IMG/VR virus record: IMGVR_UViG_3300047312_000028
Coordinates: 64,001-128,000 of that record
Direction: 5' to 3' (one strand)
From: a virus
DNA: 64,000 bases
Shown here: positions 32,340 through 45,402 of the stretch, in pieces
Position numbering within the stretch: the stretch's first letter is position 1
How the letters are laid out: every line of letters begins with the position of its first letter
Notes under the pieces: model-generated
The model's input: the letters and a program-made list of their open reading frames with translations, nothing else
Told to the model about the DNA's origin: nothing
Database searches by the model: none
Made by a program: the position numbers and the translations under genes

Positions 32340-32861
32340 GTGAAATTGAATCAAATTCTTGACCTAGATGTAACAGTGCCTTCAGCGTCGAATACCGGTA
32401 ATGCCACGACCACTGTGGCGATTATGGTGCCTGTGAACCTCGTCCCAGATGTGAGCGGAAGCGCGAACAACACGATTGAACAGGACGCTGCCGAGACACG
32501 AAAGAATGTCCGCACACTCATTGCTCAAGGTACACAAGCTGTTACAGAGTTGTTGGCACTTGCCCGCGATCTCAAAACACCACGCGCCTATGAAGTCGCA
32601 AGTAACATGCTGAAAACCATGTCGGATCTCAGTCAGGATCTTCTAGTCGTTCGACAACAAGAGAAGACACTTGAAGAGACAGCAGACACAGGTGATATCA
32701 CGATTCAACAAGCTGTGTTTGTGGGGTCGACGGCCGACCTAGCTGAGTTAGTGAAACTGAAGAGGGCTGAGAGAAAAAATGCAAACACCATCACGGTCAA
32801 AGCCGAAAGCGTCACAGACGTTCAAGGTACGACCAGTCTCCAAGAAATTCTACCTCACTAA
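32340..32861 (+). CDS. gp16: Terminase small subunit gp16
   Basis: PRAYEVA and VFVGSTADL motifs; upstream of gp17. Confidence 0.85.
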   Translation: MKLNQILDLDVTVPSASNTGNATTTVAIMVPVNLVPDVSGSANNTIEQDAAETRKNVRTLIAQGTQAVTELLALARDLKTPRAYEVASNMLKTMSDLSQDLLVVRQQEKTLEETADTGDITIQQAVFVGSTADLAELVKLKRAERKNANTITVKAESVTDVQGTTSLQEILPH

Positions 32862-34512
32862 TCCTAGGCTGAAGGCCGCAGGGGTTCAGGTACAATTCTC
32901 ACAAGATCAAGTAAACGAATGGGTGAGGTGTTCACAGGACCCCGTCTACTTCGTCACAACCTATTGTAAAATCGTCCACGTAGATCGTGGTATCATTGCA
33001 TTCGATCTCTTTGACTTCCAGAAAGAGATTATCGAAACCTATTTCTGTGAACGTAAAGTTATTGTTAAACTTCCTCGACAGATGGGTAAGACCACCACGA
33101 CTGCCGCGTTCTTCTTATGGTACATTCTCTTTAACGACAACAAGGTCTGTGCGATCCTCGCTAACAAGGCACCTATCTCTCAAGAAATCTTGGGTCGTAT
33201 TAAAATGATGTACGAACACTTGCCCCTCTGGCTTCAGCAGGGGGTAGTTGAGTGGAACAAACGTTCGATCACTGTTGAAAACGGATCACGTATTCTCGCT
33301 GCCGCAACCAGTTCAAGTGCGATTCGAGGATTCTCCTTGTCTCTGGTGTTCATGGACGAATTTGCGCACGTACCAAACAACATTGCAGAAGAATTCTTCA
33401 CCTCCATCTATCCAACGATTACCTCTGGTAAGGAAACAAAGATCCTTATTGCAAGTACACCAAACGGCTTGAACCACTACTACAAGTTCTGGACTGAAGC
33501 GGAAAGCAAGAGTAACGACTTCGTTCCCCTCTATTACAAGTGGGATAAGATGCCAGGACGCGATCAGGCCTGGGCAGATGAACAGTTACGCGCTTTGAAG
33601 GAAATGAAGTATCGCCAGGAAGTGTTGTGTGAATTCTTGGGATCAAGTGACACACTTATCTCAGGAAGCAAACTCTCAACGATGGCGATTAAGCAACCAA
33701 TCGTGTCAGAAGAGGGATGGCAAGTCTACGAACACCCACAAGAGGGCCACACCTATATCATTTGCGTCGATCCCGCCCGTGGTATCAATCGGGATGCTTC
33801 AGCATATTGGGTCATTGACGTGACACAGATTCCATATCGTGGAGTCGCCAAGTACCACAGTCATACAATTGCCCCGATGATCTTCCCAAATCTTATCTTT
33901 AACGCAGCCGTGAAATACAACCATGCGTTCGTGCTGGTTGAAATCAACGATAACGGACAACAGATCGTTGATATGCTGCACTATGATCTAGAATATGAAA
34001 ACATCTTCAAGCTTGAATCATCCCAAAAGGGAGGATCGAAGATTGCCGCAGGTTACAAGAAATCTATGCGCTTGGGTCTTCGTATGACCGAATCTGTCAA
34101 ACGTATCGGTTGTTTGAACCTCAAGACGTTGATTGAACAGGATAAGCTCTTAATTGAAGACTTTGACACCATTTCAGAGTTTTCGACGTTCACCCAGCAA
34201 CTCCAGACATTCAAAGCCGAAGAAGATCACTATGACGATTTGGTCATGTGTCTTGTCAGCTTTTCGTGGTTAGTGACTCAGAAGTACTTCCGAGAAGCCC
34301 AGGGGCGTAAGGTAGATATCCGAAAATCGCTCGAAACAGACCAGACGGCGCTGGTCGAGGACGATATCGTTCCGTTTGGGGTTATCGATACCGGTCTGGA
34401 AGATCCTATAAGTTTCGAGGACGGGGAGCTTTGGATACAAACTCGCAGCATGGATCCCGAGGAATTACAGCAGGCCATGAAGCGTTACGTTGAACGAGCA
34501 CATGGTATTTAG
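32779..34512 (+). CDS. gp17: Terminase large subunit gp17
   Basis: PRQMGKTT Walker A, FMDEFAH Walker B, STPNG, DDLVM nuclease motif. Confidence 0.95.
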   Translation: MQTPSRSKPKASQTFKVRPVSKKFYLTNPRLKAAGVQVQFSQDQVNEWVRCSQDPVYFVTTYCKIVHVDRGIIAFDLFDFQKEIIETYFCERKVIVKLPRQMGKTTTTAAFFLWYILFNDNKVCAILANKAPISQEILGRIKMMYEHLPLWLQQGVVEWNKRSITVENGSRILAAATSSSAIRGFSLSLVFMDEFAHVPNNIAEEFFTSIYPTITSGKETKILIASTPNGLNHYYKFWTEAESKSNDFVPLYYKWDKMPGRDQAWADEQLRALKEMKYRQEVLCEFLGSSDTLISGSKLSTMAIKQPIVSEEGWQVYEHPQEGHTYIICVDPARGINRDASAYWVIDVTQIPYRGVAKYHSHTIAPMIFPNLIFNAAVKYNHAFVLVEINDNGQQIVDMLHYDLEYENIFKLESSQKGGSKIAAGYKKSMRLGLRMTESVKRIGCLNLKTLIEQDKLLIEDFDTISEFSTFTQQLQTFKAEEDHYDDLVMCLVSFSWLVTQKYFREAQGRKVDIRKSLETDQTALVEDDIVPFGVIDTGLEDPISFEDGELWIQTRSMDPEELQQAMKRYVERAHGI

Positions 34513-34606: not shown

Positions 34607-36508
34607 ATGGCATTCCAGCTTAGCCCGGGCGTAAATGTTTCTGAAATTGATGCCACAACCATCGTTCCTACCGTTTCGACAACGACAGGCGCGGCAGTTG
34701 GGCAATTCAATTGGGGTCCTGTTGAGACTCGCCAACTTATCGACACAGAAGTAAAGCTGGTCACCTGGTTCGGTAAGCCAGACTCCAACACATTCGTTGC
34801 ATTCTTCTCAGCGGCAAACTTCCTTGCCTATGGCAATCAGCTACGTGTCACCCGTGCAGCAAACTCTGCCACGAAGAACGCGGTGGCAAACAATGCTACA
34901 GGCGCAGCATTACAGATCAAGAACGAAACCCTCTATGAAGCCAACTACTACGCAGGAGAAGGCGACTTCGGTTCCTTCGCGGCTCGCTACCCAGGCGCTC
35001 TTGGTAACAACTTGAAAGTGTCTGTTTGCGGTAGCTCGAATGTATTTGCTAGCAACGCTTCATTACAAACTGGCGCAACAGCGAACACAGGTAATGCAGG
35101 AGACTTAGTAATCAACACAACCGGTAACTCTGCTCCAGTCGTTCGCACAGGTGATTATGTGAAGGTTGGTACCAACCCTTACGTCCAAGTCGCTTCTGCA
35201 AACGCGACCGCGATTGTCATTGCCAGTGCATTGACTGTAGCGATCACAGGTCCTACATCGATCCTTCGCAAGTGGGAGTATGCCGATCAGTTCGACAGTG
35301 CTCCAGGCACCTCTGACTACGCAGCCGGCCACAACGGGGTGAACGATGAATTACATGTTATCGTCCTCGACGAAGACGGCGGAATCAGCGGAACAGTCGG
35401 TCAGGTTCTTGAGAAGTACCCATTTGTGTCAAAAGCATCCGATGCGAAGAGCAATGATGGATCAAGCATCTACTACCCAACCGTACTCTTCAACAAGTCG
35501 CGCTATATCTACTGGGGCGATCATGATGCCAACGGTACAAACTGGGGCAACACAGTCACCGGAACGACCTTTACTGATGTAACACAAGCACAGCGATTGA
35601 GTTTGGCGGGTGGTACAGATCAGACAGTCACAGACGGAGACTTGCAGAATGCCTGGGCTCTATACATTAACGCAGAAGTTGTGGACGTATCACTCTTAGT
35701 CTTGGGTGAAGCCGATGCAACAGTGCAGACTTATGTTCTCAATAACGTGGCCGAAGTGCGTAAGGATTGCGTAGCGTTCTTGTCACCAGCAAGAGCCAAC
35801 GTGGTTAACAACATTGGATTTGAAGCGGATGCTGTTGTGACCTATCGCAACTCACTCCCATCATCCAGCTACGCTGAAATCGATTGTAACTGGAAGTACC
35901 AGTATGATAAGTACAATGACACCTATCGTTACTTGCCATTGAACGGAGATATCGCAGGACTCTGTGTTCGCACAGATACGACCCGTGATGCTTGGTTCTC
36001 GCCAGCAGGTTACGACAGAGGGCAGATCAAGAACGTTGTCAAGCTTGCTTGGAACCCAACACTTGCAGAGCGCGACACTCTCTACAAGAACGGTATCAAC
36101 CCTGTGGTCACATTCCCAGGCGATGGTACGGTCCTTTACGGAGACAAGACAATGCAGAGCAAGCCAAGCGCATTCGACAGAATCAACGTGCGCAGACTCT
36201 TTATCGTCTTGGAAAAGGCAATCGCCCGTGCTTCAAAGTTCAGCTTGTTTGAATTCAACGATGAATTCACCAGAGCACAGTTTGTGGCAATGGTTGAGCC
36301 ATTCCTTCGTGATGTGCAGGGCCGCAGAGGTATCTTTGACTACCGCGTGGTAGCAGACACAACCAACAACACACCTGATGTGATTGATGCCAACAGCTTC
36401 GTAGGAGACATTTACGTTAAGCCAGCACGTTCGATCAACTTCATTCAATTGAACTTTGTGGCAGTGAGAACGGGTGTGAGCTTCGATGAAATCGTAGGGA
36501 AGTTCTAA
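34607..36508 (+). CDS. gp18: Tail sheath protein gp18
   Basis: SPGVNVSEID, FNWGP, WFSPAG..RG, FDRINVRRLF, KPARSINFI.LNFVA. Confidence 0.96.
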   Translation: MAFQLSPGVNVSEIDATTIVPTVSTTTGAAVGQFNWGPVETRQLIDTEVKLVTWFGKPDSNTFVAFFSAANFLAYGNQLRVTRAANSATKNAVANNATGAALQIKNETLYEANYYAGEGDFGSFAARYPGALGNNLKVSVCGSSNVFASNASLQTGATANTGNAGDLVINTTGNSAPVVRTGDYVKVGTNPYVQVASANATAIVIASALTVAITGPTSILRKWEYADQFDSAPGTSDYAAGHNGVNDELHVIVLDEDGGISGTVGQVLEKYPFVSKASDAKSNDGSSIYYPTVLFNKSRYIYWGDHDANGTNWGNTVTGTTFTDVTQAQRLSLAGGTDQTVTDGDLQNAWALYINAEVVDVSLLVLGEADATVQTYVLNNVAEVRKDCVAFLSPARANVVNNIGFEADAVVTYRNSLPSSSYAEIDCNWKYQYDKYNDTYRYLPLNGDIAGLCVRTDTTRDAWFSPAGYDRGQIKNVVKLAWNPTLAERDTLYKNGINPVVTFPGDGTVLYGDKTMQSKPSAFDRINVRRLFIVLEKAIARASKFSLFEFNDEFTRAQFVAMVEPFLRDVQGRRGIFDYRVVADTTNNTPDVIDANSFVGDIYVKPARSINFIQLNFVAVRTGVSFDEIVGKF

Positions 36509-36516
36509 ACCGTCGT

Positions 36517-36524
36517 CATAAATA
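36517..36524 (+). promoter_or_regulatory. Late promoter CATAAATA
   Basis: Upstream of gp19. Confidence 0.8.
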
Positions 36525-36551
36525 ACGATATCAAGAACAGAGGAGACGCAC

Positions 36552-37106
36552 ATGCCATTCAATTCGTATGAATTTAGAGCACAGATGCAAGGAGACGGCG
36601 CTAGACCAAATCTCTTTGAAGTTCAATTAGTGTTCCCTACGTTTATCAATCCAGGTAACGCAAATCGCAAATTGACCTTCATGGCGAAGACCGCTTCATT
36701 GCCAGGTTCGACTATCGGTCACGTACCGGTATTCTACTTTGGTCGTGAAACGAAGCTTGCAGGCAACCGTACATTCCCAGAATGGACGTTGTCCATCTTG
36801 AACGATGAAGACTTTGCAATAAAGAACGCATTCGAGAAGTGGATGAACGGTATGAATCGTCATGTCAGCAACGTGCGCGATCTTTGGGCTGGTAACTCAC
36901 TTGGATACTCAACACAAGCAACAGTCAAGCAATTCTCCAAGACCGGTGGTGTGTTGAAGACGTATACCTTCGAGGGTATGTTCCCAGTTGACCTCAGTCA
37001 AATCGACCTTGATTGGGGATCGAACGACACGATTGAAGAATTCAGCGTGACACTCGCCTATCAGTACTACACCGCTGTAGCCAAAGATAACACCGTTATC
37101 GCATAA
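36552..37106 (+). CDS. gp19: Tail tube protein gp19
   Basis: GARPNLFEV, GR..K.AG.RTF.EW, IEEF.VT..Y. Confidence 0.95.
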   Translation: MPFNSYEFRAQMQGDGARPNLFEVQLVFPTFINPGNANRKLTFMAKTASLPGSTIGHVPVFYFGRETKLAGNRTFPEWTLSILNDEDFAIKNAFEKWMNGMNRHVSNVRDLWAGNSLGYSTQATVKQFSKTGGVLKTYTFEGMFPVDLSQIDLDWGSNDTIEEFSVTLAYQYYTAVAKDNTVIA

Positions 37107-37111
37107 ATGGA

Positions 37112-37139
37112 ATGGGGGTACCTTCGGGGCCCCCGTTTT
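37112..37139 (+). terminator. Rho-independent terminator with C(UUCG)G tetraloop
   Basis: ATGGGGGTACC-TTCG-GGGCCCCCGT-TTT downstream of gp19. Confidence 0.8.
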
Positions 37140-37183
37140 CGTGAATTCATAATGCTCAACCCAAAAAAGAAGGTGGGAATATA

Positions 37184-38893
37184 ATGGCCTGGAATCTTTT
37201 TGGCTATCATCTCGGTAAGACTCCTGATGTTACAAAAGTTGAAAAACCTTCAGTACAGAACCTCGTCATTCCGCAAGCGCAGATTGATGACGGTGCAATC
37301 ACTATTACACAAGGCGCCTACTACGGCACCTATGTGGACCTCGAAGGTTCGGTTCGTAACGAACTCGAACTAATCACCCGCTACCGTGAAATGGCCCTTC
37401 ACCCAGAGTGTTCAGAAGCGATTGAAGAAATCGTAACTGAATCTGTCACGCAAGACGATGATGGTGAAGTGGTTGAAATCAACCTCGACAAACTACAAGT
37501 ACAAGCCACGATCAAGAAAAGCATCCAAGCTGGGTTCGATAAGATCAAGAACATGCTCAGTTTTCAAGACTTAGGTGAAGACTTGTTTAAGCGTTGGTAT
37601 GTCGATGGTCGTTTGTATTTTCAAGTAGTCGTGGATAAAGAAGATCCAAAGAAGGGTGTTCAAGAACTTCGCTACATCGATCCGCGCAAGATCCGCAAAG
37701 TACGAGAAATCATGAAAGAGCGCGACCCTAAGAGCGGGATTGAAGTTATCAAAGCAGTTAGTGAATACTACGTATATAATGACAGAGGATTAACAGCGCA
37801 ATCATACACAGCAAGCGTGAACCAGGGCACCAGAATCTCACCAGACAGTATCGTTTTCGTGCCGTCTGGCCTGCTTGACGCCAAATCTACGATGGTTATT
37901 GGTTGGTTGCATAAAGCGATCAAGCCTTTGAACCAGCTTCGCATGATCGAAGACGCTATCGTTATCTACCGACTCTCCCGTGCGCCAGAACGTCGCATAT
38001 TCTACATCGACGTGGGCACCCTCCCAAAGATGAAAGCTGAACAGTACTTGAAAGACGTAATGTCCAAGTACCGTAATAAGCTGGTCTATGATGCAAACAC
38101 TGGTGAACTCAGAGACGAACGCAAGCACTTATCAATGCTTGAAGACTTCTGGCTCCCACGGCGCGAAGGTAGCAAGGGAACAGAAATCACAACATTACCT
38201 GGTGGTGAAAACCTAGGCAAGATGGAAGACGTGGAGTACTTCCAGAAGAAGCTCTATAAGTCATTGAACGTGCCAATCGGTCGTCTTGATACACAGTCTG
38301 CCGGTGGTGGTCTTGTCGGTCTTGGCCGAGTCGCTGAAATCACCCGCGATGAAGTCAAGTTCAATAAGTTCATTCACAGACTCCGTAATAAATTTGCTCG
38401 CCTATTCGACGAAGCTCTCAAGCAACATATGGTTCTTACAGGCGTATGTTCACTTGAAGAGTGGGAAACGTTCCGTGAGAATATCGCTTACGACTTCAAG
38501 AGTGATAACAACTTTGCCGAACTGAGGGATGCTGAACTCGAACGTGAACGCTTAACGTTACTTCCAATGATTCTTCCTTATGTTGGGATCTATTACTCGA
38601 ACACCTGGGTCAAGCGTCATATCTTGCACCAGTCTGATGATCTCATTAAAGAGATGGCAGATGAAATCGACGAAGAAACAGAGCGTGGAGAACTTCCATT
38701 ACCTCCTCCACCAGGATCTGAAGTGCCAGGACAACCGGGTCAGCCAGGTGCACCAGGCGGCGGCGGAGCAGGCATGCCTCCAGCCGCTCCAGTCAACAAT
38801 GTAGCTGATGCGCAAGAGCAACCAAATGAGTCATTGACGCCTGGATTAGACAAATCGGTTGAGAAGAATCTGTTCCCAAAGAGCGGTCGCTAA
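37184..38893 (+). CDS. gp20: Portal protein gp20
   Basis: WYVDGR, ELRYIDPRKI, NQLRMIEDA.VIYR..RAPERRIFYIDVG, EDFWLPRREG. Confidence 0.96.
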   Translation: MAWNLFGYHLGKTPDVTKVEKPSVQNLVIPQAQIDDGAITITQGAYYGTYVDLEGSVRNELELITRYREMALHPECSEAIEEIVTESVTQDDDGEVVEINLDKLQVQATIKKSIQAGFDKIKNMLSFQDLGEDLFKRWYVDGRLYFQVVVDKEDPKKGVQELRYIDPRKIRKVREIMKERDPKSGIEVIKAVSEYYVYNDRGLTAQSYTASVNQGTRISPDSIVFVPSGLLDAKSTMVIGWLHKAIKPLNQLRMIEDAIVIYRLSRAPERRIFYIDVGTLPKMKAEQYLKDVMSKYRNKLVYDANTGELRDERKHLSMLEDFWLPRREGSKGTEITTLPGGENLGKMEDVEYFQKKLYKSLNVPIGRLDTQSAGGGLVGLGRVAEITRDEVKFNKFIHRLRNKFARLFDEALKQHMVLTGVCSLEEWETFRENIAYDFKSDNNFAELRDAELERERLTLLPMILPYVGIYYSNTWVKRHILHQSDDLIKEMADEIDEETERGELPLPPPPGSEVPGQPGQPGAPGGGGAGMPPAAPVNNVADAQEQPNESLTPGLDKSVEKNLFPKSGR

Positions 38894-38896
38894 ACG

Positions 38897-38904
38897 CATA
38901 AATA
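38897..38904 (+). promoter_or_regulatory. Late promoter CATAAATA
   Basis: Upstream of the prohead-core genes. Confidence 0.8.
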
Positions 38905-38938
38905 GTACCGAACAGTTGTCTTTATACGGAGAAAAGCT

Positions 38939-39646
38939 ATGCAAATTACCGAAGTGCATATCAGCACAAGACATTTTGAATTTGCGCATGGTAAAAAGCC
39001 CAGAGGCACAGGATCATGGGCCTTCGGTACACACCCTAATCAACCTGTAGATAAGTTATTCTGGCACAATGGTCCTTATGGTGAGGCCGCAAAGGCTGCC
39101 AAAGAACACGCCAAGAAGAACGGTCATGGAGAAATGCACGTCATGTCTGAATCAAAAGAAGACGATATCAGAGATAGATCCTTAAAAGTCAAACGAGAGT
39201 TGGATGCCGCAGCGCGTTCAAAAGTTGCAAAGAAAACCTTAGACGCGGCCGCAGCCGCAAAGAAGGCAAAAATGATGAAGGAAGATTTTGCTCCAATCGG
39301 TGATGTGATTACATTGGTGGCCAACGATCAGCGTTCTGAAGCGACCTCAATTGTCAATGACCTTTTGAGTGCCCGAGTACTCGACGCACTCCAGGGGCAT
39401 AAGCAAGACATTGCCAAGTCGTTGTTTGCACCAGGCACAGAAGCCTTGCAAGAAGAGACTGAACAACTTGACGAAAAGAATTGGATTGCAGGCGCCGTAA
39501 AGAACAAGGGTGGATTGCATCGTGCGTTAGGTGTCAAGGAAGGCGATAAGATTCCTGAAAGCAAGATCGACGCCGCAGCACACAAAAAGGGTAAGGTTGG
39601 TAAAGAAGCTCGCTTGGCAAAGACGCTCAAGGGATTCCACAAGTAA
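38939..39646 (+). CDS. Modular prohead core / internal head protein containing a gp67-like segment
   Basis: gp67 position; helical segment DLLSARVLDALQGHKQDIAKSLF flanked by basic modules and [ILM]-x-E sites. Confidence 0.6.
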   Translation: MQITEVHISTRHFEFAHGKKPRGTGSWAFGTHPNQPVDKLFWHNGPYGEAAKAAKEHAKKNGHGEMHVMSESKEDDIRDRSLKVKRELDAAARSKVAKKTLDAAAAAKKAKMMKEDFAPIGDVITLVANDQRSEATSIVNDLLSARVLDALQGHKQDIAKSLFAPGTEALQEETEQLDEKNWIAGAVKNKGGLHRALGVKEGDKIPESKIDAAAHKKGKVGKEARLAKTLKGFHK

Positions 39647-39650
39647 TTCA

Positions 39651-40505
39651 ATGAAAGAATTTACAGACCTACGCAAGCAATTGTATGAAGGGGTGGAGGA
39701 CTTGGCGGAGCATATTGCAATCGCCACTAGTTCTATGCCTCCCAACATTCTGATTCTTCGTAGGAAGACTGTACGACAGTTCCCAAATCATACGATGGTT
39801 GCCTTGTATTACAATGATAAGCTCGACCAATATTTCAGCATTCCTTATGGCGGTGATGCTAGCGCAGTGGTCACTCCAGTCTCATTGAGAGAAGAAGAAC
39901 AGCTTCAAGAAGTTTCTGATAAGGTGGCTACCTCAGCATTCTATGCCCGTCTTGGTCGTTCTAAGTATGCGTCCAAGAAAGGTGACCGCGTTACGGCCGA
40001 TAAGCACATGACAAAAGCTATGCAGACGCATGAGCGCATTAAGAAAAAGCATTTGGAAGAAGACATAGAAGAACTCGACGAAGCCGGCTATCGTACAAAT
40101 CCAAAACGTGCCGCATGGATGTCCGAATTTGAAACTCATGTAGTCAAGCAGGCGCCTGAACACACTGGGAAGATCGATTGGGATTCCGCGCACCATATGC
40201 ACTTTTCTGGCAAGGGCGCAAAAGAATCAGCAGACCAGTATGTAAAGAGCCGACACCAGTTACCTGAATCAGTCGAACACAACGCGATTGATACACTACG
40301 ATCAATCAGAGACTTTCACGCGATTAAGCATATCAAACATGACGATGGAACAAAGACGCATGTAGACCCAACGACTGCCCATGCACTCTTAACGGTTCAT
40401 GATGCGTTGAAGCCAGAGCACCAAACAAAGTTTGCAGAGCATTTGAAAGCCTCAAAGCCAAAGTTTAACAAGATGCTTGATTTTACATGGAAGTCGGTGC
40501 ACTAA
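39651..40505 (+). CDS. Modular internal head protein with CTS-like N-terminus
   Basis: Start at ATG 39651 (MKEFTDLRKQLYE); modules separated by LRE/LQE/LEE/LDE/LPE. Confidence 0.6.
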   Translation: MKEFTDLRKQLYEGVEDLAEHIAIATSSMPPNILILRRKTVRQFPNHTMVALYYNDKLDQYFSIPYGGDASAVVTPVSLREEEQLQEVSDKVATSAFYARLGRSKYASKKGDRVTADKHMTKAMQTHERIKKKHLEEDIEELDEAGYRTNPKRAAWMSEFETHVVKQAPEHTGKIDWDSAHHMHFSGKGAKESADQYVKSRHQLPESVEHNAIDTLRSIRDFHAIKHIKHDDGTKTHVDPTTAHALLTVHDALKPEHQTKFAEHLKASKPKFNKMLDFTWKSVH

Positions 40506-40909
40506 TGCACCCGATTACAGCAATCGTGACCGGGGAAGGCGCGATAGCTAAAAAGATTATTTCTGAAGCGTTAAATAGTATTGTGTTAGAGAAGATTGCC
40601 ATACTACGAAAGATCATGTCGAATCGAGTACATGGAACGCTTGCAGAAGCAAACAGAATGCGCCAGGGTCGTACAGTTTTAATTCGTCGCCGCATTCGTA
40701 AAGGGAAGTTACAGCGTAACATTCGACGATCCGCCGTCAAGGGATTCACATTGCGCCACGGTAAGATTACTCGTATCCCAGTGGCCAGACGTGTGCATAT
40801 GAGAATCGTGCAGAGGAGAGCCGCACGTAAACGTAAGGCACATATGCAGCAGACACTCCGTAAGAGAAAATTGAGTCTTAGAAAACGCAAAGCATATGGA
40901 ATCAAGTAA
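40505..40909 (+). CDS. Prohead core protein, gp68-like (Arg/Lys-rich)
   Basis: ATG overlaps the upstream stop; highly basic C-terminus ending RKRKLSLRKRKAYGIK; located before gp21. Confidence 0.7.
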   Translation: MHPITAIVTGEGAIAKKIISEALNSIVLEKIAILRKIMSNRVHGTLAEANRMRQGRTVLIRRRIRKGKLQRNIRRSAVKGFTLRHGKITRIPVARRVHMRIVQRRAARKRKAHMQQTLRKRKLSLRKRKAYGIK

Positions 40910-40917
40910 GGAGCACC

Positions 40918-41298
40918 ATGTCATACGAACTTCTCAATAAACTTCGTGGGCCATCGACAATCAAGTTAGTTGATAGCACAACCGTATCAATTAACTTGTC
41001 ACAATTGTCCGTCACTGTCTCAGGCAACACTCAGGTCGAAAACGTGTACTCTGCGGCAATCACCTCTATGAAATGGTCGTTGCACCCAACAACAGGATCG
41101 TTGCAAATTTCACGACAGAATGCAGGCAGCGCAGCAAACGTGGTGGCGAACGTATTTCAGACAGGATCTTGGAAACACGATGAAGTCAACATTGCAAACT
41201 CTGCAACCGGTAATATTATTTTCACGATGGTAGGTCCTGGTAGTGCGTTCATCACTCTTTCAAAGGTCGCCGATTACAACGTAAGTACACAATTCTAA
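40918..41298 (+). CDS. Hypothetical protein in the head module
   Basis: AAGGAG RBS, 126-aa beta-rich ORF. Confidence 0.6.
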   Translation: MSYELLNKLRGPSTIKLVDSTTVSINLSQLSVTVSGNTQVENVYSAAITSMKWSLHPTTGSLQISRQNAGSAANVVANVFQTGSWKHDEVNIANSATGNIIFTMVGPGSAFITLSKVADYNVSTQF

Positions 41299-41305
41299 GG
41301 ACACC

Positions 41306-41959
41306 ATGAAACTAATAAGAGAAAGCGTCGAACAAGTCAAGGTGCTCACAGAATCCGATAAGATTTCGGGTAAGAAGCATTACTACATTGAAGGTATCTT
41401 CATGCAGTCTGACCGCCCGAATAAGAATCGCCGTCAATACCAGTTTGAATCACTCAATAAAGAAGCAGACCGGTATCGTTCTGTGTATATCGATAAGAGC
41501 CGCGCATTTGGCGAACTTGGTCATCCTGACTCTCCAACGATTAACTTGGAACGAGTTAGTCATATGATTAAGGAACTTCGTCCAGATGGCAAAGATTTCT
41601 ACGGCAAAGCGAAGATTCTAGAAACTCCATACGGCAAAATCGTGCAAAGTCTTCTTGATGAAGGTGCGATGATTGCAGTCAGCACCCGCGGATTGGGTTC
41701 ATTGGTCAAGGGTTCAGACGGTATTGATATCGTACAAGACGATTATCAGTTGGCTACAGCGGCCGACATTGTAGCAGACCCTTCTGCCCCTGATGCTTTT
41801 GTGCATGGCATCATGGAAGGCAAGGAGTGGATGTGCGTTGAGGGTAGATATGTGGAATGCGACATTGAACGCGCAAAAAAGGTCATCGAAGCGGCCCCAG
41901 GTCGTCGATTACAAGAAGTTGCCGTTCGCCTATTCTCAGAGTTTATGAGAAAACTGTAA
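41306..41959 (+). CDS. gp21: Prohead protease gp21
   Basis: IEGIFMQ...N.N.R.Y, GELGHP, VSH.I, VSTRG.GS, DIVADPSAPDA. Confidence 0.95.
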   Translation: MKLIRESVEQVKVLTESDKISGKKHYYIEGIFMQSDRPNKNRRQYQFESLNKEADRYRSVYIDKSRAFGELGHPDSPTINLERVSHMIKELRPDGKDFYGKAKILETPYGKIVQSLLDEGAMIAVSTRGLGSLVKGSDGIDIVQDDYQLATAADIVADPSAPDAFVHGIMEGKEWMCVEGRYVECDIERAKKVIEAAPGRRLQEVAVRLFSEFMRKL

Positions 41960-41960
41960 T

Positions 41961-41991
41961 ACGGTACTCAAAATACCGTGTTTTATAAATA
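41961..41991 (+). promoter_or_regulatory. Short hairpin (ACGGTA/TACCGT) followed by late promoter TATAAATA at 41984-41991
   Basis: Inverted repeat plus T-run, then exact consensus upstream of gp22. Confidence 0.75.
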
Positions 41992-42022
41992 ACAATTACT
42001 TGTGTAGCCTAAGGAGAACCTC

Positions 42023-43120
42023 ATGAAAAATGCGTTGTTAGAAGCTGCCGCTGAAATCTTAAAAGCTAGCCATTCGAGTGCACCAAAAGAAGAAATGCAC
42101 AAGATGGCCGGTGAAGTTGAAGACCTCGGTGGAGATACTCCACAAGAGCACAGCGATAAGAAACTTGACGTACATGCCAAGGAAGCAACTCCTCCAGGCA
42201 AGCAACCAGATTCGAGCACAAAAGCCGCAATGCCAACCGTCGCAGGAAAGCCAGGCGAGGCCATCGATCCAACAGAGGCTGGTGAAAAGACAGCAGAAGA
42301 GTTGGAAAGAGAACGTCGCATTAACGCCGGGTTGGAAGCAGGCGATTTGAAAGAGGGTAAGGTAGTCAGTGATGAAACATGGAAGAAGAATCTCAAAGAA
42401 GACGTTGCCGCAATCTTGGCGTCTGAATCAGGACTCTCACAAGAGTTTTCAGCCAAAGTCGGTACCATCTACGAAGCCCGCGTTACCGATAAAGTTCAGA
42501 GCATTCAGGAACAGTTAGAGAAATCTTACGAGACGAAGTTTGCCGCTGCCGTTATCGAAGTCCGCGACAGCTTGACCGAGCAAGTCAATGACTATCTCGA
42601 TTATGTTGTTGAAGAGTGGATGAAGCAGAACGAATTGGCAATCGAAAAGGGTCTCCGCTCGGAGTTGACCGAAGAGTTTATTACATCACTTCGCAACGTA
42701 TTCTTGGAACACTATATCGACATTCCTGCCGAGAAGGTCAGCATCGTTGACGAACTCGCAACGAAGGTCGAAGAGTTGACCACTTCATTGAATGAAGAAG
42801 TTGCCAAGGGTGTTGAACTCAAGAAGCAACTCGGCGAATCGAAGAAGTCAGAAATTCTCAACAGCGTATGTGATGGATTGACACAGACGCAAGTTGAAAA
42901 AGTTCGTACACTCGCAGAGAGTGTCGAATTCACCGCAGAAGGTGATTACAAGGGTAAGGTTTCAACAATCCGAGAGAACTACTTCCCAGTGTCTACAGGT
43001 AAAAAGATCGACGCGAAAGTGTTGACCGAAGCATCTGAACCATTGGCGGAAGAGAAGCCAGCAATTGTTGATGCAGGCGTGGCAAGTGTCGCTGCCTCAC
43101 TCAGCAAAATTATGAAGTAA
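42023..43120 (+). CDS. gp22: Prohead scaffolding protein gp22
   Basis: YLDYVVEEWM..NELAIE.GLR.E..E.FI..L..VF.EHYID.P. Confidence 0.93.
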   Translation: MKNALLEAAAEILKASHSSAPKEEMHKMAGEVEDLGGDTPQEHSDKKLDVHAKEATPPGKQPDSSTKAAMPTVAGKPGEAIDPTEAGEKTAEELERERRINAGLEAGDLKEGKVVSDETWKKNLKEDVAAILASESGLSQEFSAKVGTIYEARVTDKVQSIQEQLEKSYETKFAAAVIEVRDSLTEQVNDYLDYVVEEWMKQNELAIEKGLRSELTEEFITSLRNVFLEHYIDIPAEKVSIVDELATKVEELTTSLNEEVAKGVELKKQLGESKKSEILNSVCDGLTQTQVEKVRTLAESVEFTAEGDYKGKVSTIRENYFPVSTGKKIDAKVLTEASEPLAEEKPAIVDAGVASVAASLSKIMK

Positions 43121-43152
43121 TCACCAATACCAAAGAACGAAGGAGCATACAC

Positions 43153-44502
43153 ATGTTTTTATCAGAGAATCTAGAGAAAAAGTGGGCAGCAGTGCTTGAC
43201 CACGAATCCCTCCCAAAGATCACCGACAAGTATCGTCGCGCGGTCACTGCGATTGTTCTTGAGAACCAAGAAACCGCATTGAAGAGCGAAGCGAGAATGT
43301 TGAACGAATCTGCCCCAACCAACTCCACAGGTGGTGGGTTGACAGGTGGATCCGCCGCAGCAGGTCCAATGGCTGGTTATGATCCAATTCTTATCAGCTT
43401 GGTCCGTCGTTCCCTTCCAAACTTGATTGCATACGACGTATGCGGAGTGCAGCCAATGACCGGTCCAACAGGATTGATCTTCGCAATGCGTTCCAATTAT
43501 GCCAATGCGACAGCGGGCCGCTTGGATGAATCCTTCTACAACGAAGCCAACACTGGTTGGTCTGGTAACTTGGTTGCACAAACTGCAATCAGCTTGGCAG
43601 CAGATACTTCCCTCGGTTCCCAGAACGTGTTTGCTAGCACCATGACAACAGGTGGTGGTATCAACACAGTCACAGCAGAAGGTTTGGGTTCAGGTGGTGG
43701 TATTCCTCCATTCCAGGAAATGGGCTTCAGCATTGAAAAAGTCACGGTTACTGCAAAGACCCGTGCTTTGAAGGCTGAATACTCACTCGAACTCGCTCAG
43801 GATTTGAAGGCAATCCACGGTTTGGATGCTGAGACAGAATTGTCCAACATTCTTTCCGCAGAAGTGCTTTCTGAAATCAACCGCGAAGTCATCCGCACAA
43901 TCTACACGGTTGCGAAGGTTGGCTGCCAGGTTGGTACAACGACACCAGGTACTTTCGACCTTGACACCGACTCAAACGGTCGTTGGATGGTTGAAAAGAT
44001 CAAGGGTCTTGTATTCCAGATCGAGCGTGAAGCCAACGTCATTGCAAAGCAAACCCGTCGCGGTAAGGGTAACGTGGTCATCTGCTCTTCAGATGTGGCC
44101 TCGGCATTCGCACTCGCCGGCGTGCTTGACTATGCAGGAGCGTTGAAGGACAATGTGAACTTGAGTGTGGACGACACAGGTAACACCTACGCAGGTACCT
44201 TGCTCGGACGCTACAAGGTCTACATTGACCCTTACTTCCCAGCAGCCCAGTCAGCAGAATTCGCAGTTGTGGGTTACAAGGGTACGAACGCATTTGATGC
44301 GGGACTCTTCTACTGCCCATACGTTCCTCTCCAGATGGTTCGTGCTATTGACACGAACACCTTCCAGCCAAAGATCGGCTTCAAGACCCGATACGGTTTG
44401 GTTGCGAACCCATTCGCAGAAGGTCTCGTACAGGGTCTTGGTGCATTGAACGCAAAGGCGAACATGTACTACAGAGCATTGAAGATTTCCAACATTGCAT
44501 AA
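43153..44502 (+). CDS. gp23: Major capsid protein gp23
   Basis: LENQE, CGVQPMTGPTGLIFAMR, RALKAEYS.ELAQDLKAIHGLDAE.EL, FQPKIGFKTRYG. Confidence 0.98.
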   Translation: MFLSENLEKKWAAVLDHESLPKITDKYRRAVTAIVLENQETALKSEARMLNESAPTNSTGGGLTGGSAAAGPMAGYDPILISLVRRSLPNLIAYDVCGVQPMTGPTGLIFAMRSNYANATAGRLDESFYNEANTGWSGNLVAQTAISLAADTSLGSQNVFASTMTTGGGINTVTAEGLGSGGGIPPFQEMGFSIEKVTVTAKTRALKAEYSLELAQDLKAIHGLDAETELSNILSAEVLSEINREVIRTIYTVAKVGCQVGTTTPGTFDLDTDSNGRWMVEKIKGLVFQIEREANVIAKQTRRGKGNVVICSSDVASAFALAGVLDYAGALKDNVNLSVDDTGNTYAGTLLGRYKVYIDPYFPAAQSAEFAVVGYKGTNAFDAGLFYCPYVPLQMVRAIDTNTFQPKIGFKTRYGLVANPFAEGLVQGLGALNAKANMYYRALKISNIA

Positions 44503-44531
44503 GCAATTTGGGACTTGAATCTCTCAAACAC

Positions 44532-44566
44532 AGGGGTGCTTCCGTAAGGGGCACCCCTTTTGTTTT
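44532..44566 (+). terminator. Rho-independent terminator after gp23
   Basis: AGGGGTGCTTC...GGGGCACCCCT stem followed by TTTGTTTT. Confidence 0.85.
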
Positions 44567-44578
44567 ATCCGAGGACCT

Positions 44579-44887
44579 ATGCAAATCAGTCTATATCTTC
44601 GCACGACAGAGACAGGACACCTGCACTGGTGCCCGGCCTGTGATTGGGCCCATGGCATCCCATATACTTGGAAGTTCGACGGAAATGTAGATAGCCCAAC
44701 ATTTGATCCCAGTGTCAAAATTCAATGGTGGGATCGTAAACTTCAAGGTATCAGAAACTACGAATGTTGTCACTACAATCTAATCGCTGGTAAGTTAATC
44801 TTTCACGAAGATTGCACACATGCAATGCGTAACAGTACTGTCCCCCTTCCATTACTCCCAAAACATCTGCTTGACAACCCCTCATAA
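44579..44887 (+). CDS. Small Cys/His metal-binding protein (DUF6527-like)
   Basis: WCPAC..AH, W.FDG....PTF.PS, CH..L..G...F..DCTH pattern. Confidence 0.65.
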   Translation: MQISLYLRTTETGHLHWCPACDWAHGIPYTWKFDGNVDSPTFDPSVKIQWWDRKLQGIRNYECCHYNLIAGKLIFHEDCTHAMRNSTVPLPLLPKHLLDNPS

Positions 44888-44899
44888 ATAGAGTACAAT
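44871..44899 (+). promoter_or_regulatory. Composite promoter: sigma70 TTGACA-17-TACAAT with late CATAAATA in the spacer
   Basis: TTGACA 44871-76, CATAAATA 44883-90, TACAAT 44894-99. Confidence 0.7.
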
Positions 44900-44916
44900 G
44901 ACCCACTGGAGAACCT

Positions 44917-45402
44917 ATGTCAGTAATTGTCTGGGCGCTCTTCTTCGTACTCACAAGCCCGGTAACGGGTCTTGACCGCACCACCCTTCTCAATAAATAC
45001 GAATCTGAAGAACAATGTGAGAAGAGCAAAGTGAAGGTCACGGAAGGCATGGAAGCCACGTATCCCAATGATACGTCTTTCAAACTTGTCTGCCGGGATA
45101 TTACACCAAGTCGGTATACAAGCTATCATGAACTGTTACTCACATGGGCAGATGAACAGCGCCCAGGTGAACGTTATACGATCTCGGTACGCAGAGTTGC
45201 AGAATTCTATACACCAGAAAACGATGGCGCGATTGCCATAGGTGTCACGATCAGATATAAAGATGGCAAACAAGACTATATGGTCATGTTCAGTGGCGGT
45301 GATGTAGTCAAAGTTCTCGGTGCAGTCGAAATGCAATTTGCTGATGAAGAAGATGAAGATAATGAAGGAGAAGGAGTATTCTCCGGTAAGGATCAAGCGT
45401 GA
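44917..45402 (+). CDS. Hypothetical exported/membrane-anchored protein
   Basis: GGAG RBS, hydrophobic N-terminus, two Cys, acidic tail. Confidence 0.6.
   Translation: MSVIVWALFFVLTSPVTGLDRTTLLNKYESEEQCEKSKVKVTEGMEATYPNDTSFKLVCRDITPSRYTSYHELLLTWADEQRPGERYTISVRRVAEFYTPENDGAIAIGVTIRYKDGKQDYMVMFSGGDVVKVLGAVEMQFADEEDEDNEGEGVFSGKDQA

Follow-up and report, generated by a model that had tools for sequence, protein, structure and literature searches.

Exchangeable small domains on probable prohead-core proteins encoded between the portal and protease genes of an uncultured T4-like phage

How proteins are selected for, and brought into, the capsid of a tailed phage is understood for very few model phages. 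In T4, the prohead protease gp21 cuts after L/I-x-E, and gp22, gp67 and gp68 are cleaved into fragments (PMC9026906; PMC5694885). Both gp67 and gp68 have been implicated in head-size determination (PMC9026906), and they are present at about 341 and 240 copies per prohead, respectively (PMC5694885). A short N-terminal capsid-targeting sequence (CTS) directs the T4 internal proteins to the core, with positions 4 and 7 of this leader important for targeting and positions 8 and 10 for processing (PMC9026906). By T4 precedent, Asp in place of Glu prevents processing and leaves targeting intact. The internal proteins of T-even phages are diverse and have only the CTS in common, and one of them, IPI*, inhibits a restriction enzyme (PMC3012670, in which the loading of such diverse proteins by means of the CTS is credited to Mullaney and Black, 1996, and Repoila et al., 1994). 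In phiKZ-like phages, head-internal proteins are processed at multiple sites (PMC9026906). Here, we describe three open reading frames (ORFs), A, B and C, that lie between the portal and protease genes of an uncultured T4-like phage. They are found in a stretch of 64,000 nucleotides (the window, in which positions are numbered unless stated otherwise) that comprises bases 64001-128000 of the IMG/VR record IMGVR_UViG_3300047312_000028, a genome of 176,325 bp rated 100% complete. We propose, with a probability of roughly 0.6, that A, B and C are prohead-core carriers with spliced-in basic domains, which would be cut free by the gp21-type protease and kept with the DNA. The genes of this block are as follows:

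37184-38893 (+), portal gene, gp20 type, the upstream anchor of the block (PF07230, 2.4e-173; phrog_213, 1.2e-197)
38939-39646 (+), ORF A, 235 amino acids (aa), a gp67-like helix with three added modules
39651-40505 (+), ORF B, 284 aa, constant ends B1 and BC with variable middle cassettes
40505-40909 (+), ORF C, 134 aa, probable gp68 homologue
40918-41298 (+), ORF D, 126 aa, conserved fourth gene of the block
41306-41959 (+), prohead protease gene, gp21 type, S77, encoding the presumed processing enzyme (PF03420, 3.8e-31; phrog_207, 9.8e-69)

An original prediction, made from the letters of the window, had placed A, B and C correctly and had seen in all three a string of unrelated modules, joined by short acidic linkers that end in [ILM]-x-E. 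Every motif that it listed is present. Its count of three genes between portal and protease overlooked D and should be four, and its description as strings of modules fits A and B but not C, which is colinear and two-part. We found 53 relatives of A and 114 of B, all metagenomic, very different in length and partial in coverage. Mapping their local alignments onto A and B resolved the module borders, which are listed here with support from AlphaFold models (confidence as predicted local distance difference test, pLDDT):

38954-39151 (+), A1, residues 6-71 of A; His/Lys-rich, net charge +3, 8 His, ends MSE; modelled as three strands and a helix
39152-39283 (+), A2, residues 72-115; 44-residue Lys/Ala/Arg helix, net +6, ends MKE; helix modelled at 73-113
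39284-39454 (+), A3, residues 116-172; gp67-like core helix by PHROG profiles and hidden Markov model (HMM); acidic, net -5
39455-39475 (+), acidic linker, residues 173-179; ends LDE and holds an EQLDE junction; pLDDT about 49
39476-39643 (+), A4, residues 180-235; small helical basic domain, net +10, with free-standing homologues
39651-39710 (+), N-terminal CTS-like peptide of B, residues 1-13, ends LYE, followed by an acidic stretch, 14-20, ending LAE; from the family consensus
39711-39893 (+), B1, residues 21-81; small beta domain with invariant PPNILILRR, ends LRE; strands at 37-66
39894-40082 (+), linker and cassette Bm1, residues 82-144 (Bm1 88-144); basic helical hairpin, ends LDE, Bm1 net +7; helices at 81-144
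40083-40268 (+), cassette Bm2, residues 145-206; small His-rich helical domain, ends LPE; pLDDT 90-95
40269-40502 (+), BC, residues 207-284; constant C-terminal alpha/beta domain, 10 His; pLDDT above 90

A and B are mosaics of independent modules, which have been gained, lost, duplicated, reordered and exchanged between carriers. When IMG/VR was scanned with the B alignment, 41 loci came up, 28 of them with a complete interval, and module HMMs were projected onto 175 related A- and B-type proteins. Wherever a contig reaches, the order is kept as tube, portal, A3-containing gene, B1...BC gene, C, D, protease, scaffold and capsid, and the portal-to-C interval ranges from 869 to 2923 bp across the 28 complete loci. 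Minimal forms are A3 alone, a 64-aa gene in L040-L043, and B1 plus BC, a protein of 160-163 aa in L031 and L032; the longest forms reach 538 aa for the A type (L022) and 510 aa for the B type (L027). Bm1, which is present in only 21 relatives, precedes Bm2, present in 34, in the window, L003 and L004, and follows it in L022 and L027. BC, with 131 matches nearly always at the end of the protein, is duplicated in L017 and L018. Modules also change carriers: A1 recurs in only two other proteins, the nearest relative and, at residues 275-345, the B-type protein P0056, both copies ending in [ML]xE/S (here and below, a slash marks the predicted or known cut), and the large cassette family X1 has 26 matches in A-type and 35 in B-type carriers. 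Iterative seed-HMM masking, used after clustering in 25-residue bins had merged everything into one giant component, defined 13 further seed families, of which 12 occur in the 175 proteins. We count about 20 cassette families. Even among the closest relatives cassette content differs. For example, P0002, the closest relative of A at 80% identity, stops just past A3 and is without A4, which reads as a recent gain or loss. The modules are thus found in shuffled order and as genes of their own (A4 and the gp67-like helix, discussed below), and homologues of A and B do not align colinearly over their full length as one folded domain would; C is colinear in all its relatives.

Loci L040-L043 represent a more distant sub-clade, with a capsid protein 73% identical to that of the window. 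Their gp67-like gene is the bare 64-aa form, and their B-type proteins carry an N-terminal extension of 118-146 aa (cassettes X3 and X4) in place of middle cassettes.

The borders between modules carry a motif of the kind cut by T4 gp21, and we consider cleavage at these borders likely. The motif [ILVM]xE stands at the end of A2 in 49/49 cases, at the start of A3 in 28/28, at both the start and the end of Bm1 in 21/21, and at the end of B1 in 117/124, compared to a frequency of 0.196 at any position; nominal binomial values for this 94-100% occupancy are extreme, but the sequences are related and significance is overstated, so we treat the border statistics as descriptive because of this shared descent. 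The same type of motif flanks cassettes X1-X12, and the pentapeptide EQLDE forms a junction 57 times in the 175 proteins, ahead of at least 10 different cassettes. As the original prediction had it, the motifs lie in linkers. In the AlphaFold models, they fall in low-confidence stretches between separately folded modules with pLDDT values of up to 95: confidence drops at about residues 61-72 and 164-181 of A (predicted template modelling score, pTM, 0.35), and at residues 20-29 (pLDDT below 50), 78-80, 145-148 and about 205 of B (pTM 0.30). The motifs at A 199, A 205 and B 157 are probably not sites, because they lie inside confident folds. Cutting at the remaining borders would yield basic folded fragments (A1, +3; A2, +6; A4, +10; Bm1, +7; C residues 49-134, +34) and acidic ones, namely the linkers and the gp67-type helix.

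Perhaps, then, these motifs are not sites at all, and the proteins are flexible multi-domain components of the core or virion that stay unprocessed, with acidic junctions acting as linkers and as microhomology for recombination. Indeed, the motif is short and common in Glu-rich helices, and the recurrence of EQLDE at many borders could promote shuffling. One argument for processing comes from a leader that the original prediction had missed, the 44-residue A2 helix. In relatives, A2 is invariably followed at once by A3 or B1, and its last three residues are always [LM]xE. Most relatives have it at the N-terminus; in the window it lies inside ORF A and is missing from ORF B. It looks like a leader or adaptor. 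Where A2 precedes a B-type protein, the junction is LKE/F in 29/29 cases, whereas in leaderless B-type proteins the same position is residue 3 and holds Glu in just 27 of 60, Asp taking its place in 16 and Asn in 10 (Fisher p=4.7e-8). The junction Glu thus appears to be fixed only where an upstream leader stands to be removed. The same motif occurs at the propeptide border of C and in the capsid protein, where the predicted match to the core sites bears out: LNE at residues 50-52 (43300-43308, +), followed by S, lies near LTE/AE of T4 gp23 in the N-terminal alignment, relatives keep [LIM]xE/[STA] with Met at P3 included, and LNE/S is the presumed maturation site. Moreover, the S77 protease gene adjoins the block, and free-standing A4 proteins begin, with MAKNWIAGA, exactly at the predicted LDE/K cut. 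Taken together, these points make it very improbable that the proteins remain unprocessed.

That A, B and C are components of the core is probable in our analysis. For A, the case is made by A3, in which the original prediction had already recognised a gp67-like helix. A3 matches phrog_683 at 6.8e-6, a family that T4 gp67 itself matches at 1.1e-3, and it shows a weak match (E=3e-3) to the T4 gp67 family phrog_1064 and one of 22.2 bits to DUF7216, under the cutoff of 27. In the reverse direction, the A3 HMM scores 8.1 bits on T4 gp67, a value reached by 3/2000 composition-matched shuffles, and 14.3 bits, reached by 0/2000, on 'gp130' of cyanophage S-RIM8, a gene of the same type and the single one between portal and protease in that phage. 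Like gp67, ORF A is placed directly downstream of the portal gene and upstream of the protease gene, and A3 is found in 28/28 loci with a complete interval. With its three extra modules, the 235-aa ORF A departs from the size of gp67 (about 80 aa), to which the bare 64-aa form in L040-L043 comes near only in relatives. Where gp67 has a short helix and then an acidic tail, ORF A has the helix and a short acidic linker. On weak profile scores combined with synteny, A3 would be gp67-like.

ORF C is probably a gp68 homologue, two-part and colinear rather than a polyprotein. A propeptide, residues 1-48, ends in LAE (46-48) and is followed by an 86-residue basic domain, 49-134, with a net charge of +34 and an isoelectric point of 12. 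The protein is colinear at 35-72% identity across related loci; its domain 45-134 is C-terminal in 233 cluster representatives of many lengths, and [LIV]xE-A-N just ahead of the basic domain is kept in most family members. T4 gp68 has INE and LNE at 59-67, then a basic part, and its tail ends in the same RKRKALG-type motif. An hhalign comparison of C to gp68 gave 48% probability (E=1.8e-4) over the last 30 residues/columns only, the HMM of the C-terminal domain scores 10.1 bits on gp68 (reached by 2/2000 shuffles), and some members of the C family match phrog_3503 and phrog_33445, both of which gp68 also matches. ORF C itself had no PHROG match (the T4 gp68 family is phrog_1049), and BLASTP of C against T4 gp68 found none. 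In size, build and place, C has what gp68 has: 134 aa, an [IL]xE-type N-terminal part, a basic C-terminal part, and a position in the portal-protease block. ORF D, unlike the T4 layout, sits between C and the protease gene. It is matched in nearly all related loci whose DNA extends that far, has a strong AAGGAG ribosome-binding site and zero [ILVM]xE motifs, and shows a sole, weak family match to phrog_10468 ('virion structural protein', 0.0096). Its counterpart in cyanophage ACG-2014f may be an 85-aa protein encoded at the corresponding place.

ORF B belongs to a new, clade-specific family in which B1 and BC are constant and the cassettes between them variable. At the N-terminus, K2, F4 and R8 hardly vary across the family, and the consensus peptide ends in L-x-E. 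The original prediction had likened this peptide to the T4 leader MKTYQEFIAE, with which T4 ipII and ipIII do start in the T4 genome; M1, K2, an aromatic residue at 4, a hydrophobic one at 7 (L7 in B) and the terminal L-x-E are shared. This resemblance to the CTS is suggestive, the stretch being too short to prove homology. We rejected a longer B beginning with GTG at 39531, since the added stretch would run over A in another frame, and homologues have either the MKE start or the A2 leader. No annotated relatives were found for B1 or BC, and Foldseek of the B model against the PDB returned nothing below E=0.099. A BFVD search with B gave uncharacterised viral proteins, some of them from Synechococcus phages ACG-2014d and ACG-2014e, and 14/35 BC members match phrog_4187, of unknown function.

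Several further leads touch these modules. A1 is modelled poorly, with low pLDDT; in the Atlas it leads to a 75-aa free-standing viral cluster (template modelling, TM, score 0.87) and to the label 'AP2/ERF' (0.78), kept as a lead only, and Atlas matches hint that A1 and BC may also exist as viral proteins of about 75-83 aa. The start of phrog_696 ('major head protein', 263 positions) is matched by capsid residues 53-80 and its end by BC; the family could be a head-internal protein with segments in common with both, and its label may thus be wrong. Outside the window, an ORF at genome positions 160039-160473 (L129:1540-1974) encodes a 144-aa acidic protein that starts with MKAFDLFLKE, then HAMGEE. 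It is the only other ORF of the genome with an N-terminus fitting the T4 leader pattern (about 0.2 expected by chance), adjoins a head-closure-like gene, had no PHROG match, and may be a separately encoded capsid-targeted protein.

A4, the best characterised of the cassettes, leads a life outside the core genes. At least 235 proteins of 57-62 aa, 65-84% identical to the module, start with MAKNWIAGA, and the A4 family is found on 410 IMG/VR viral contigs, mostly of 35-70 kb. In the 80 best loci (L049-L128), A4 is mostly an ORF of 55-72 aa, and 0/80 have the T4-type head genes of the window; recurrent neighbours are genes for a capsid protein, large terminase, portal, 'internal virion protein' and virion structural protein. 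The best BFVD match is a 58-aa protein, 72% identical (TM 0.74); the A4 fold is also seen, at TM 0.83, in a 56-aa protein of Prochlorococcus phage Syn1. The module was, by this comparison, apparently captured from, or released to, a family of free-standing genes. The free-standing gene is part of structural modules, and in many cases an 87-aa domain, with which several large PHROG families (phrog_3477, phrog_727) also end, is encoded about 0.8 kb upstream of it.

The behaviour of A4 bears on a second alternative, in which the cassettes are disposable scaffold mass that tunes core volume or head size and is cut small for expulsion, with nothing functional retained. Such a role would be in keeping with T4, where gp22, gp67 and gp68 are cut into short exiting fragments and multiple sites aid clearance (PMC9026906; PMC5694885), with the implication of gp67 and gp68 in head size, and with an interval that varies three-fold in length. 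It fits poorly, however, with cassettes that fold confidently (A4, Bm2 and BC, pLDDT about 90) and whose basic character predicts binding to DNA. It also fits poorly with A4, which is kept at 65-84% identity as a gene of its own in unrelated phages, which hints at an independent function. On balance, we regard scaffold mass as an unlikely explanation.

Returning to core carriers with releasable basic domains, we envisage the following course of events. A (built around the gp67-type A3), C (gp68-type) and B (a third core protein, B1 plus BC) would form the inner scaffold of a T4-like phage, with A and B carrying small, independently folding and mostly basic domains parted by short acidic linkers that end in [LIM]-x-E. 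Constant parts and leaders, namely A2, A3, the MK-x-F N-terminus of B, B1 and BC, would bring about co-assembly into the core. The activated gp21-type protease would then cut after each exposed Glu; the acidic linkers and helices would exit the head, and the basic domains of 45-85 residues would be retained, serving the incoming DNA as counter-ions or condensing peptides, and might later exit the capsid together with it. As junctions of the EQLDE type are standardised, we propose that cassettes are readily gained, lost and moved between carriers. Retention of the basic modules in the head is, to our minds, an evenly balanced question, and an effector role after injection seems improbable.

A third alternative would make just such a role the purpose of the cassettes. 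They would be anti-defence or host take-over effectors, injected in hundreds of copies like T4 IPI*, and their turnover would reflect an arms race. The T-even internal proteins provide a precedent, being diverse passengers behind a common CTS, one of which blocks a restriction enzyme (PMC3012670); likewise, cassette content here differs even between closest relatives, and the N-terminus of B resembles the T4 CTS. Searches of Pfam, PHROG and Foldseek, however, found no enzyme or known anti-defence family among the cassettes: Pfam gave no match past the cutoff for single modules, and we put weak matches to DUF968, HNH and SutA down to chance. Most cassettes are tiny, basic and generic, more like DNA-binding peptides, and A4 is highly conserved rather than fast-evolving. 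Injected effectors are thus an explanation that we doubt. It is tempting to speculate, as a bolder form of the carrier proposal, that this is a general cargo loader: core carriers would bring changeable folded proteins, a few hundred copies of each, into every capsid, where they would be released by the protease and later co-injected to act on the host, for instance by shielding DNA or countering defences, with some captured from free-standing genes and EQLDE-type junctions making the set evolvable. This broader scheme remains tentative, and we would not expect it to hold in full.

Besides the shared descent that inflates the border statistics, a number of results weigh against core carriers with releasable, retained domains. 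Across whole ORFs, [ILVM]xE exceeds shuffled expectation in A (p=0.025) and B (p=0.002), and the tail sheath protein, taken as a control, is likewise in excess (p=0.004); motif counts are unconvincing in themselves because the excess is modest and the sheath shows it too. The links to gp67 and gp68 are weak by sequence, with scores of 8-14 bits and the hhalign probability of 48%, and the Pfam GP67 model PF17634 found no match in A. A tblastn search of A, B and C against 50,697 phage records gave no match and hence no cultured relative. The whole 176,325 bp genome holds no second copy of any module or of the A2 leader, and the carrier system would therefore be confined to the portal-protease block. 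Finally, the fragments of T4 gp22, gp67 and gp68 are reported mostly to exit the head (PMC5694885).

The block is embedded in a T4-type morphogenesis region, the other genes of which are:

32779-34512 (+), terminase
34607-36508 (+), sheath
36552-37106 (+), tube
42023-43120 (+), gp22-type scaffold
43153-44502 (+), gp23-type major capsid protein

The capsid protein shares 62-63% identity with its counterparts in T4-like cyanophages and in the Methylophilales phage Melnitz, and only the portal, protease, scaffold and capsid genes resemble cultured phages at the DNA level. The ATG of ORF A is preceded, at a distance of 9 nt, by GGAG. ORFs A, B and C appear to be translationally coupled, since B begins 5 nt past the end of A, and the stop codon of B shares bases with the start codon of C (TAATG). 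The T4 late-promoter consensus TATAAATA has its sole occurrence within 36001-45000 at 41984-41991 (+), just upstream of the scaffold gene, so that transcription of A, B, C, D and the protease gene would start at a promoter lying farther upstream.

If these assignments are right, a widespread lineage of uncultured T4-like phages carries a hypervariable array of protease-delimited cassettes on gp67/gp68-type carriers within its conserved head module. The proposal predicts defined cut sites and peptides, at a few hundred copies per head if stoichiometry is like that of T4 gp67 and gp68. It also adds families for unannotated proteins (B1/BC, A2, A4 and about 12 further cassettes) and ties A4, a very common unnamed phage protein of about 58 residues, to a probable role inside the head. 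Perhaps the standard junction and leader could serve designs for loading phage capsids.

How, then, does this locus compare with the systems described at the outset? Like T4 gp67 (PIP) and gp68, which are encoded between portal gene 20 and protease gene 21, A and C lie between portal and protease, and C shares with gp68 its length, an [IL]xE-bearing N-terminal part, a basic C-terminal domain and the RKRKALG-type end. Unlike here, gp67 (80 aa) and gp68 (141 aa) are without extra folded domains; in this lineage the gp67 type is fused to cassettes, giving proteins as long as 538 aa among the relatives. B is present as a third carrier and D as a fourth gene, and sequence similarity to T4 is weak. 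With IPI, IPII, IPIII and Alt of T-even phages, the locus has in common diverse, small and mostly basic passengers and a content that varies between phages; the N-terminus of B would correspond to their short core-targeting leader, which ends in [IL]-x-E. In the T-even proteins this leader is removed by gp21, and the same would apply here. Each T-even passenger is encoded singly, with a leader to itself, in a variable region outside the head module; here one carrier holds several passengers within the conserved head module, with internal sites and with A2 as a further leader.

The inner-body and ejection proteins of phiKZ, 201phi2-1 and SPN3US are likewise cut after Glu, at several sites per protein, by a gp21-related protease, and lose long propeptides to leave basic, DNA-associated mature parts. 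They differ in their S/A-x-E motif, their large paralogue families and their lineage, whereas here the motif is L/I/M-x-E and the cassettes, of 45-85 aa, are shuffled. Borders in our proteins show L, M or I at P3, a position that is L, V, I or M by construction of the motif search, and Foldseek and BFVD gave no fold or family match of window proteins to giant-phage proteins. No description of this combination of features was found in the literature searched. The gp67/gp68 core proteins, the specificity of gp21, CTS-mediated loading and multi-site processing in phiKZ-like phages are all known; what appears to be new is the carriage of multiple passengers, at least one of them exchanged with a family of free-standing genes, on gp67-type and B-type carriers, within the head module, with standardised junctions and exchange of passengers between carriers.

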